In this document: piece after piece, positions 61,538-63,788 of the stretch | How the letters are laid out: each line of letters opens with the position of its first letter | How positions within the stretch are numbered: position 1 is the stretch's first letter | Origin: Betaproteobacteria bacterium | GTDB taxonomy: Bacteria > Pseudomonadota > Gammaproteobacteria > Burkholderiales > Thiobacillaceae | Assembly: GCA_020049415.1 (NCBI GenBank) | Contig: JAIFKV010000129.1 | Span: forward strand, 8,708-72,707 | DNA length: 64,000 nucleotides | Reading direction: 5' to 3' | Made by a program: the position numbers and the translations under genes | The notes under the pieces: generated by a model | What the model was told of the DNA's origin: nothing | The model's input: the letters and a program-made list of their open reading frames with translations, nothing else | Database searches by the model: none

Positions 61538-63502
61538 TCAAGTCAGATGACGCAAATCGACAGCTCTTACCAAGGGTGAATCGGCCCAAGTCTGAGTTGG
61601 AGAGGTTTCCCGTTGGACGAAGAAGCGATGCTGAAGGGCGATGGTAAGCAGAAAAATGAAAGCCTGATTTTCTTTGGTGCTGATCTCGGCTGACGGGCTG
61701 TTCAAAATCTTGTTGCTGAGAGCACGTACAAATTTCCCGTCCAAGAAAGGCATCTTGGCGATCTCATCGGAACTAAGCAGCAGTTCCAGGTAGTCTGGCC
61801 GACAGTCCACGAAGGCAGCGCTGTCTGGTGCTCGGTAAGGAAACTTTCGTTTGTTCACGATAGAGCTTGGCAATCGTGCACGGAAGGCCTGCCGCAGAAG
61901 TCGCTTCTCATCGAAACCGTCGTCAAAACGCAAGTTGATCGAGGCAGCCAGTCTCACAACAGCGGGGTCAAGGAAGGGGCAGCGGTTTTCCACACCATTT
62001 GCCAGTCCCATGCGTTCCCCCTGGGTCGACAACAGATAGCCCGCCAGAAGGGTGCGGAACTCAAGCCATTGGGCCTTGTGTATCGACGTCATTTCGGCAT
62101 AACCGGGCGTCGCCGCGACCAAAGCCGAGATAGCCTCGAATGGATTGCCGGCGTTCTTGATGAGCCGCGCTGAGAATCGTCCGTTCTGAAAGCGCAACTC
62201 ATGGGAAAACAACCCTGGCAGGCGTTCCTGTGAAAATTGTTGATACAACCCGGTGAGGGCGGCAACATCCTGAGGACCGTAATGTTCTAAATGCGGATAA
62301 AGGCGCGCTAACTGAATGCGGCGCTTTTCTTCATCGTGATTCAACCAGTCCTGTCTGAGCAGTGTTTCCTTGAACAAGTCATAACCCAGGAAAGCCTCGT
62401 CCGCACCTTCCCCAGACAGCACTACCTTGATTCCCGCCTGCCTGGTACGGGCGGATAGCAGATACATAGGAACAAAGGCGCTCCGAAAGGCGGGGATTTC
62501 GGCGTGCCAGGCGGCGGCTGGAAGGCTATCGACAATATCGCGATGCGTAATTGTCAGTGCGTGATGTCGACTCCCGAGAAGGGTCGCCATTTCGTGCTGC
62601 TGGTCTGATTCGTCATATTCCCGGTCGGCAAACTCAACCGAAAAGGTGGACAGAGGATGGGAACTCAGCTCTCCGGCAAGTAAGGCAACAACAGCAGAAT
62701 CAATGCCACCGCTCAGGTAAACGCCAACTTCGACGTCGCTTCGCAGGCGCAACGCCACGCTTTCTCGCAGCCGCTGTTGAATCAGATCCAAAGCTTCTGC
62801 TTCACTACCAACAGTGATATTGCCTCCGAAATCGAGCGTTTCATAAGGCATAACCTCGGTTTTCCCGGCGCGGCAGCGCAGCCAGTGACTCATGGATAGG
62901 CTATGTATGCCATGGAACCCGGTCTGTTCCGGTAACGGCGTCCAAACGGCAACGATTGAGGCCAGTTGCCTAGGATCATGCTCAAAAACAAAACCGGGGA
63001 ATCTCAGGAAAGCCTTCATCTCTGAGGCAAACAACATCCCCTCGCCACAGAAAGCGTAGAACAGGGGACGCTTGCCATAACGATCCCGTGCCAGAATGAG
63101 TTCATCACGATCCCGGTCGTACAGGGCAAAGGCAAAGCCTCCATTGAGGCGGGGAAGGCAGGCAGCCCCCCAGTGAAGCCAAGCCTGTAAAAGTACTTCT
63201 GTATCGGAATGAGTGGAAAAATTACAGCCTAGCGCTTCGAGTTCAACGCGCAATTCCAAATAGTTGTAAATCTCGCCGTTGTAACAAAGCCAGTAGCGTT
63301 GTGTCGGGTCGGAGATGGGTTGAATACCCGCTTCGATGTCGATAATCGACAAACGGGTGGATCCCAAGCCACAGCGACTGTCTACGACATATCCCGTGGC
63401 ATCGGGCCCCCGATGGGCAATGGCTCGCAACATGCTCAACAGGGTGTCGGGAAACGCCTCTACCGCCAAGGACGGGTGGAAGAAGCCGGCAATGCCGCAC
63501 AT
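61538..63502 (-). CDS. Asparagine synthetase (glutamine-hydrolysing)-like amidotransferase
   Basis: Preferred start gives MCGIAGFF, the Ntn-amidotransferase Cys2 nucleophile. The PP-loop is YLSGGIDSAVVALLA. The start lies 8 nt after the stop of the upstream ACP gene. The listed ORF start at 63547 adds 15 aa and overlaps the ACP gene. Confidence 0.85.
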   Translation of the reverse strand: MCGIAGFFHPSLAVEAFPDTLLSMLRAIAHRGPDATGYVVDSRCGLGSTRLSIIDIEAGIQPISDPTQRYWLCYNGEIYNYLELRVELEALGCNFSTHSDTEVLLQAWLHWGAACLPRLNGGFAFALYDRDRDELILARDRYGKRPLFYAFCGEGMLFASEMKAFLRFPGFVFEHDPRQLASIVAVWTPLPEQTGFHGIHSLSMSHWLRCRAGKTEVMPYETLDFGGNITVGSEAEALDLIQQRLRESVALRLRSDVEVGVYLSGGIDSAVVALLAGELSSHPLSTFSVEFADREYDESDQQHEMATLLGSRHHALTITHRDIVDSLPAAAWHAEIPAFRSAFVPMYLLSARTRQAGIKVVLSGEGADEAFLGYDLFKETLLRQDWLNHDEEKRRIQLARLYPHLEHYGPQDVAALTGLYQQFSQERLPGLFSHELRFQNGRFSARLIKNAGNPFEAISALVAATPGYAEMTSIHKAQWLEFRTLLAGYLLSTQGERMGLANGVENRCPFLDPAVVRLAASINLRFDDGFDEKRLLRQAFRARLPSSIVNKRKFPYRAPDSAAFVDCRPDYLELLLSSDEIAKMPFLDGKFVRALSNKILNSPSAEISTKENQAFIFLLTIALQHRFFVQRETSPTQTWADSPLVRAVDLRHLT

Positions 63503-63509
63503 GGCGCGA

Positions 63510-63788
63510 TTAACCGCTTTGGACGCTCGCCCCCAGGCCGGCAACATCCTGTGCGGTTTTCTGGACGACGTATTCTCTGATACGAATCAGGCTTGTCAGA
63601 ACATTGCCAGTCATTTCCTGTTCAGAAAAACGAAAGTTGAATTCCTTTTCAAGGAAGCGGCACATCTGTACATAGCCAAACGAATCCATGACCCCCTCCT
63701 TGAACAAATCAGTATCTTCAGGAAATGATTCATCGAACTCGATCAGAAAGCGCTGCTCAATATATTCGCGTATTTTGTCGCTCATCAT
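63510..63788 (-). CDS. Free-standing acyl carrier protein (candidate starter-unit carrier)
   Basis: 92 aa. The phosphopantetheine site is KEGVMDSFGYVQM. It lies immediately upstream of, and is co-oriented with, the amidotransferase gene. Confidence 0.75.
   Translation of the reverse strand: MMSDKIREYIEQRFLIEFDESFPEDTDLFKEGVMDSFGYVQMCRFLEKEFNFRFSEQEMTGNVLTSLIRIREYVVQKTAQDVAGLGASVQSG

Follow-up and report, generated by a model that had tools for sequence, protein, structure and literature searches.

A free carrier protein and an AsnB-like amidotransferase as the probable trans-acting loading module of a sesbanimide-type polyketide synthase cluster from an uncultured betaproteobacterium

The stretch of DNA considered here, 64,000 nucleotides from an uncultured betaproteobacterium (contig JAIFKV010000129.1, positions 8,708 to 72,707; hereafter the window), encodes two large polyketide synthases (PKSs), the first of which lacks a loading domain, and far from them a small free acyl carrier protein (ACP) followed by a homologue of the asparagine synthetase AsnB. 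Does this distant pair supply the starter unit of the first synthase, and if so, which one? An earlier note on the same DNA had proposed a malonamyl starter. The analysis described below indicates that the ACP and the AsnB-like enzyme are very probably the trans-acting loading module of a sesbanimide-type, glutarimide-forming trans-acyltransferase (trans-AT) PKS, and that the window, judged by its gene content, is a complete sesbanimide-type (sbn) trans-AT PKS cluster. Sesbanimide is a glutarimide polyketide, and sesbanimide R is capped with arginine. The malonamyl reading found support because the pair is orthologous to the published loading modules, SbnK/SbnJ among them, because a tree places the enzyme accordingly, because the first two modules of the first synthase (PKS1) are of the KS-DH-KR-ACP / KS-B-ACP type, and because the surrounding cluster is sbn-like; the amidation step itself is predicted by homology.

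The larger member of the pair, an AsnB-like glutamine-dependent amide synthetase of the SbnJ/MgsD type (61538..63502, minus strand, 654 aa), was identified from Pfam, NCBIfam, motifs and homology. Its longest open reading frame (ORF) extends to 63547, and the ATG at 63502 yields the N-terminus MCGIAGFF. An Ntn (class II) glutaminase requires a cysteine right after the initiator methionine, and the homologues begin with MCG in 80 of 80 cases, so the ATG at 63502 was taken as the functional start. A public JGI gene call (P0001, 669 aa) begins 15 codons before this Met-Cys start and overlaps the ACP gene; its start is probably mis-annotated and ought to be corrected to the Met-Cys start. ORF and motifs bore out the intact Cys2 nucleophile and PP-loop that the earlier note had described, with SGGIDS occupying residues 264-269. 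In the alignment of the family the glutaminase residues R50, N75, G76, E77 and D100 do not vary, and E365 and D368 are the counterparts of AsnB E348 and D351. Pfam matches comprise GATase_7, GATase_6 and Asn_synthase (E = 2e-74). The enzyme passed the broad model TIGR01536, ‘asparagine synthase (glutamine-hydrolyzing)’, with 432 bits against a cut-off of 267, but it did not reach the AsnB equivalog model PRK09431 (290 bits, cut-off 499) or the XrtA amidotransferase model (352 bits, cut-off 817). It shares 31% identity with E. coli AsnB over 419 residues and carries a C-terminal extension of ~100 aa that is conserved in the family and absent from E. coli AsnB. Both a housekeeping AsnB and an XrtA/PEP-CTERM amidotransferase were consequently rejected as identities on the grounds of the NCBIfam cut-offs, identity and genomic context.

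The smaller member is a free starter carrier protein, an SbnK/MgsC-type ACP of 92 aa (63510..63788, minus strand), recognised from its ORF, NCBIfam matches and a profile search of the PDB. The free ACP with its GVMDSF motif was confirmed at these positions, while the gap between the two genes, previously given as 8 nt, measured 7 nt from the TAA stop of the ACP to the ATG of the amidotransferase. The phosphopantetheine serine of GVMDSF lies inside a family motif, LFKxGxxDSFGY, that is >90% conserved among members of the ACP family, and D35, S36, G38 and Y39 of DSFGY are invariant across 22 ACP sequences. A Pfam search with the ACP gave no PP-binding match at E = 0.001 or better. Four NCBIfam ACP/PCP families match it at full length (E = 1.5e-6 to 1e-4), and a profile of the 22 sequences matched nothing but carrier proteins in the PDB (best match 2my5, E = 7e-10), aligning the DSF serine with the phosphopantetheine site. 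On account of the NCBIfam matches, the PDB profile search and the literature, the protein is called a carrier protein even though Pfam is silent. A metagenome-assembled genome (MAG) of Algicola sp. encodes the same ACP fused to an AT domain (L048:1114-2250, 378 aa, GYSVGQ). The fused gene immediately precedes those for the amidotransferase and a PKS, and as a natural fusion it agrees with loading of this ACP by an AT. Apparent fusions of ACP and amidotransferase at five loci (L008 and L011 among them) were discarded as artefacts, as a stop codon is present at every junction and the tblastn matches had been extended across the in-frame stop.

A scan of species-representative genomes provided 80 loci, each of which was screened with every protein of the window. 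Hundreds of relatives of the amidotransferase have 60-83% identity, and an ACP homologue (39-84% identical) lies directly upstream on the same strand in 80/80 loci from five phyla. PKS genes occur within 10 kb of the pair in 74 of the 80 loci; the six others include three contigs that are short or truncated. An ECH homologue (56-59% identical) is present in both L028 and L017, the latter also having a KS, and among the 80 loci screened only L033 and L049 showed no PKS gene in the 10 kb to either side. Half of the loci (40/80) carry an HMGS cassette in the flank and were classed as sbn type, with hosts in the Alpha- and Betaproteobacteria, Acidobacteriota and Bacteroidota. The Myxococcota locus L053 has ABC and AT-ER genes, and the HMGS cassette was not found within its flank. 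At 32 of the 80 loci, a PKS starts 12-162 nt downstream of the pair; its first KS shares 48-62% identity with the window's KS1, and in most of them the second KS is 54-65% identical and bears a B-like region. Streptomyces and Kitasatospora make up most of the hosts of these PKS-adjacent loci, joined by Burkholderia and Accumulibacter.

The closest genome, Ca. Nitricoxidireducens bremensis MAG5 (Sterolibacteriaceae), has 83% identity and is syntenic gene for gene. Roseibium aggregatum and Magnetospirillum carry the same pair inside their sbn clusters, and the pair of Stappia indica is also similar; in the published producer R. aggregatum PHM038 (L021), the amidotransferase and the ACP are 63% and 62% identical to the window pair, respectively. 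Streptomyces amidotransferases that precede KS...KS-B synthases are 55-60% identical to the window enzyme. The phylogeny of the AsnB homologue that the earlier note had suggested was built by neighbour joining from 142 sequences, namely those of the loci, a set of representatives taken from a full HMMER search, and E. coli AsnB. The PKS-linked enzymes all fell into one clade, with E. coli AsnB as a distant long-branch outgroup, and the window enzyme paired with that of MAG5 within a betaproteobacterial sbn subclade, inside the PKS-linked clade and far from AsnB.

More distant relatives of the amidotransferase, at 41-46% identity, were observed in neighbourhoods of glycosyltransferase, epimerase and DegT aminotransferase genes (L088:2163-6342; L089:2367-6477; L090). 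In these glycan neighbourhoods there is also a member of the same ACP family (E = 4e-25 with the ACP profile), a stand-alone AT with GYSVGQ and a protein with the PP-loop SGGKDS, and their gene content suggests that amidated acyl-ACP may also be used in glycan modification.

The presumed recipient, PKS1, is an SbnO-type synthase of 6990 aa (29745..50717, minus strand), whose domain map reads KS-DH-KR-ACP / KS-B-ACP / KS-KR-ACP / KS-MT-ACP / KS-ECH-ECH-ACP-ACP / KS-DH(split). The first KS begins at residue 9 and no loading ACP precedes it, in agreement with the earlier note. Modules 1 and 2 are the glutarimide-forming pair. With the first KS of sbn synthases KS1 shares 62-67% identity, and with the first KS downstream of the amidotransferase in Streptomyces 55-59%, compared with ~35% for other KS domains. 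The alignment of the module 2 KS-B covers the entire crystal structure of the RhiE KS-B (4kc5, residues 11-827, E = 6e-177), while structures that contain only a KS cease to align near residue 600; when the B region was searched alone, RhiE was the sole match (E = 0.003). The strict DH motif HxxxGxxxxP cannot separate B from DH domains here, because it is absent from both synthases, the genuine DH domains included. Further downstream, the ECH-ECH didomain occupies residues 5484-5871, ACPs with GLDSILAVT are situated at 5937 and 6039, and the C-terminal end consists of a KS plus a degenerate DH, which belong to a split module at the junction with the second synthase, PKS2.

How unusual is the distance between the pair and its synthase? 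The stop of the amidotransferase gene (61538) and the start of PKS1 (50717) are 10.8 kb apart, close to the 11 kb noted earlier, and exporter genes and a divergent phosphopantetheinyl transferase (PPTase) do lie between them. The full set of intervening genes comprises a type II thioesterase (TE), a DUF697 protein, an SPFH/Band7 protein, a solute-binding protein, the PPTase, two ABC genes and AT-ER. The view that this layout is unusual did not hold: sbn-type loci never have the pair adjacent to the PKS, and the pair and PKS are separated by 6.0-6.2 kb and divergent in 20 of 22 such loci, or by 9.1 kb and co-directional in one acidobacterial locus. The 10.8 kb in the window are a modest variation on the sbn layout. 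The description of the spacer as about 4 kb of unrelated genes stood only in part, given that the TE and the DUF697 and Band7 pair recur in sbn-type clusters. On the other side, the identical public contig (JGI metagenome 3300028584) has a housekeeping M48 peptidase upstream of the ACP, so the pair marks the edge of the cluster.

The pair is more AT-rich than the PKS genes, as had been claimed: the G+C content is 45.9% for the ACP and 54.3% for the amidotransferase versus 63.4-63.7% for the two PKS genes, and G+C at third codon positions (GC3) is 0.54 and 0.59 versus 0.71. However, the low G+C says nothing specific about the pair, because everything between the ACP and the PPTase, both included (56883-63788), shares it, with a GC3 of 0.52-0.59 against 0.71 in both megasynthases (8556-50717). 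Housekeeping genes upstream (L001) have a GC3 of 0.64-0.68, and MAG5 shows a parallel offset (0.72-0.80 versus 0.87-0.91). This step in composition may stem from mosaic assembly or from a difference in codon selection.

Gene content, motifs, orthology, phylogeny and module architecture come from this analysis, while each chemical step proposed in the following is drawn from the literature on homologues (PMC12710063; bioRxiv 10.64898/2026.04.24.720606). The PPTase of the cluster would convert the free ACP to its holo form, and the single malonyl-specific trans-AT (AT-ER) would malonylate it. The AsnB-like enzyme would then use ATP at its PP-loop site to adenylate the free carboxylate of malonyl-S-ACP, and its N-terminal cysteine would hydrolyse glutamine and pass ammonia to the acyl-adenylate, giving malonamyl-S-ACP, AMP and PPi. 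The malonamyl unit would be transferred to KS1 of PKS1, where module 1 (KS-DH-KR-ACP) would generate an alpha,beta-unsaturated amide thioester. Module 2 (KS-B-ACP) would add malonyl by Michael-type branching, and the amide nitrogen would close the glutarimide ring.

Several points weigh against this assignment of the pair. The role of the window amidotransferase is predicted from homology, and amidation of malonyl-ACP in glutarimide pathways is still described as ‘proposed’ or ‘hypothesized’ in a 2026 preprint by Challis, in which GbnC was not soluble and an in vitro assay was not possible (bioRxiv 10.64898/2026.04.24.720606). The same preprint did demonstrate AT-to-ACP loading in vitro, incorporation of 15N-glutamine, and genetics (bioRxiv 10.64898/2026.04.24.720606). 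In addition, the neighbour-joining tree was built without bootstrap, OxyD and named MIBiG sequences are not among its sequences, and the isolated B domain resembles RhiE weakly, at the E-value given above. Finally, a promoter and terminator scan of 61000-64000 returned matches at or below chance expectation, none of which was assigned; since the pair forms a two-gene unit of its own that is closed by the convergent TE, co-regulation with the PKS was not inferred.

If the pair does amidate an acyl-ACP, the amide need not end up in a glutarimide. In the gladiolin, etnangien and sorangicin pathways, which use the same ACP and AsnB-like families, cryptic amide starters are later removed by an amidase (bioRxiv 10.64898/2026.04.24.720606), and the window pair could likewise make a malonamyl or succinamyl starter that protects the carboxylate and is hydrolysed later on. 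Such systems require a GbnM-type amidase and, if the starter is succinyl, an additional AT dedicated to it. However, the amidase signature GGS[ST][GSA]G[SA] was not found in six frames of the window, which shows the cluster as far as position 1, no Amidase match occurred among its scanned ORFs, and its single AT is of the malonyl type. A KS-B-ACP branching module directly follows module 1 of PKS1, and the cluster as a whole is collinear with sbn, the products of which bear a glutarimide. The lack of an amidase signature and of an extra AT and the presence of KS-B are the reasons why a glutarimide is preferred, and a cryptic starter appears very unlikely for this cluster.

The acceptor might also not be a polyketide at all, with amidated acyl-ACP being delivered to a glycan or lipid. 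The distant homologues described above, which share the ACP family, an AT and a PP-loop protein amid glycosyltransferase, epimerase and DegT genes, point in this direction, as does the presence of the DUF697 and SPFH membrane proteins near the pair. Yet the window enzyme belongs to a subclade of at least 55% identity in which all members with enough flank are PKS-linked, and no sugar-modifying genes were detected in the window or in the 2.2 kb upstream (L001), which makes a non-polyketide acceptor highly improbable. The least credible option, to which I attach next to no weight, would be an asparagine synthetase of primary metabolism, or some other housekeeping amidotransferase, that happens to sit beside the cluster together with a small ORF that is no functional carrier. 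TIGR01536 was passed, public annotations of relatives use the name asparagine synthase, and the pair is located at the cluster edge beside the M48 peptidase with a G+C content below that of the PKS genes, all of which would suit such an enzyme. Against this stand the 31% identity to E. coli AsnB and a score below the AsnB equivalog cut-off, the upstream ACP with its invariant DS motif in all 80 loci and five phyla, and the position of the enzyme within the PKS-linked clade. A loading module for glutarimide formation is therefore the reading retained for the pair.

The remaining genes can be followed along the minus strand, where the order of features is the pair, TE, DUF697, SPFH, solute-binding protein, PPTase, two ABC genes, AT-ER, PKS1, monooxygenase and PKS2, and then an FkbM methyltransferase, P450, HMGS, ACP, KS0 and ECH. 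A discrete type II TE (60396..61493, plus strand; Pfam Thioesterase, 2e-26) is convergent with the amidotransferase and syntenic in L002, and probably carries out the proofreading that an acylhydrolase performs in other sbn clusters. Replacement of the acylhydrolase by a TE was previously noted for Azovibrio, Azorhizobium and Magnetospirillum, and a preprint by Kacar et al. notes that in A. restrictus, A. doebereinerae and Magnetospirillum the second AT is replaced by a type II TE. The TE ORF measures 365 aa in the window versus 295 aa in MAG5; its first ~70 residues are basic and of low complexity, and may not be translated.

Next follow, both on the minus strand and both assigned from Pfam, the DUF697 protein (59748-60350) and the SPFH/Band7 protein (58490-59455). 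The two genes were found together at nine sbn-type loci (L007, L014, L020, L024, L026, L031, L039, L045 and L068) from Beta- and Alphaproteobacteria and Acidobacteriota, and thus from two phyla, Pseudomonadota and Acidobacteriota. Across these loci the DUF697 proteins are 42-78% and the SPFH/Band7 proteins 33-75% identical, with an ORF of ~55 aa between them. They may constitute a membrane-associated accessory module. Such a module could scaffold the assembly line or exporter at the membrane, for example, or provide self-protection against a eukaryote-directed toxin. A wider reading would join two ideas, namely that the stretch from the ACP to the PPTase is a compositionally distinct accessory block in which DUF697 and SPFH form an undescribed part of the pathway (scaffold or self-protection), and that the ACP and amide synthetase chemistry is also used outside polyketides. 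Taken jointly, these two ideas seem doubtful to me, though not far-fetched.

A solute-binding protein is encoded between the SPFH gene and the PPTase (plus strand). The PPTase itself is of the Sfp/HetI type (56883..57671, plus strand; Pfam ACPS and AASDHPPT_N, with a HetI-like NCBIfam match below the cut-off) and divergent from the ABC genes; it should convert the apo-ACPs, including the free ACP, to the holo form. Two ABC exporter genes (53097..56383, minus strand), conserved beside AT-ER in sbn loci, precede the trans-acting malonyl AT fused to a PfaD-type enoyl reductase (AT-ER; 50722..53100, minus strand). AT-ER scored 305 bits with TIGR00128 (fabD; cut-off 261) and 617 bits with pfaD_fam, has the motifs GHSVAE and GAFHT, and is the sole AT in the window, of the FabD-like or malonyl type, and hence the presumed loader of the free ACP.

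Between the two synthases lies a flavin monooxygenase, an SbnP-type Baeyer-Villiger monooxygenase (BVMO; 28444..29748, minus strand; Pfam FMO-like, 2e-49). PKS2 is of the SbnQ type (8556..28628, minus strand, 6690 aa), begins with an ACP and continues with several PKS modules and then C-A-PCP-TE. The tailoring genes and the beta-branching cassette fill 2831..8428 (minus strand) with the FkbM methyltransferase and P450, followed at 2831-6359 by HMGS, ACP (4796-5041), KS0 and ECH; their orthologues adjoin the ACP-amidotransferase pair in most sbn loci. A lipase-like or palmitoyl-thioesterase-like hydrolase of 282 aa (1850-2698), situated at the far cluster edge and having an N-terminal hydrophobic segment and a low G+C of 47%, had no counterpart among 86 related loci and is probably outside the cluster.

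The pair is thus a loading module already known in kind, and the window is a further case from an uncultured betaproteobacterium with a rearranged layout. It has little bearing on mechanism, as the role of an ACP and AsnB-like loading module in glutarimide formation is textbook for this class of compounds, and sesbanimide-type clusters have already been reported as widespread, the betaproteobacterium Azovibrio restrictus included. Its value lies in annotation: the window can now carry the label of a complete sesbanimide-type cluster, with an uncultured relative of Ca. Nitricoxidireducens (Sterolibacteriaceae) as its source and, as its likely product, a cytotoxic glutarimide polyketide. The analysis also offers a rule for surveys: where a member of this ACP family immediately precedes one of this amidotransferase clade, the two mark an amidated polyketide starter (80/80 loci), and the KS-B module then tells glutarimide from cryptic-amide products.

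Compared with known systems, the window is closest to sbn. SbnK/SbnJ, MgsC/MgsD, ChxC/ChxD and GdsC/GdsD are proposed glutarimide loading modules (PMC8262917; bioRxiv 10.1101/2020.09.18.303172; PMC12710063; bioRxiv 10.64898/2026.04.24.720606), and the sbn cluster combines SbnJ/K with SbnO, the BVMO SbnP, the PKS/nonribosomal peptide synthetase (NRPS) SbnQ, the branching cassette SbnF-I, the P450 SbnE and the methyltransferase SbnD (PMC8262917; bioRxiv 10.1101/2020.09.18.303172). The sbn clusters of Stappia indica PHM037, Labrenzia/Roseibium aggregatum PHM038 and Magnetospirillum gryphiswaldense have the same tightly coupled order of ACP and then amidotransferase, and share with the window AT-ER, two ABC genes, the SbnO-type PKS, the BVMO, the SbnQ-type C-A-PCP-TE, the HMGS cassette, P450, FkbM and PPTase. 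The SbnO-type PKS, BVMO and SbnQ-type PKS/NRPS stand in the sbn order with a split junction module, and the sbn hallmark of an HMGS cassette with tandem ECH and tandem ACP in the PKS is likewise present. Differences concern mainly the arrangement: the gene order is rearranged, and the window is unidirectional except for TE, solute-binding protein and PPTase; the beta-branching cassette, which in sbn is convergent with the amidotransferase, lies 53 kb away at the opposite end; and ~5 kb (TE, DUF697, SPFH, solute-binding protein and PPTase) separate the pair from the ABC genes. Moreover, a type II TE takes the place of the acylhydrolase SbnA, and the host belongs to the Betaproteobacteria.

The same two protein families recur as MgsC/MgsD, ChxC/ChxD, LtmC/D and SmdC/D in Streptomyces and as GdsC/GdsD or GlaB/C in Burkholderia gladioli. 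Single Streptomyces loci are only tentatively identified as chx, mgs or smd; their amidotransferases are 55-60% and their ACPs 39-51% identical to those of the window, and their first two PKS modules match KS1 and KS2-B at 54-60%. In contrast to the window, the Streptomyces and Burkholderia glutarimide clusters have the pair 12-162 nt ahead of the PKS (the 32 loci above) and lack the HMGS cassette, BVMO and NRPS module. GbnA/GbnB/GbnC, EtnA-C and SorV/SorQ resemble the window in that a free ACP and an AsnB-like synthetase prime a trans-AT PKS without a loading module, but the gladiolin, etnangien and sorangicin systems have a malonamidase-like amidase, a dedicated AT for succinyl and no KS-B, and the window is the reverse on all three. 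At the level of fold, E. coli AsnB (PDB 1ct9) and the hydroxyamidotransferase of PDB 7ylz share the Ntn glutaminase and PP-loop synthetase with conserved catalytic residues, while the window enzyme is ~100 aa longer at its C-terminus than E. coli AsnB and is always paired with an ACP.

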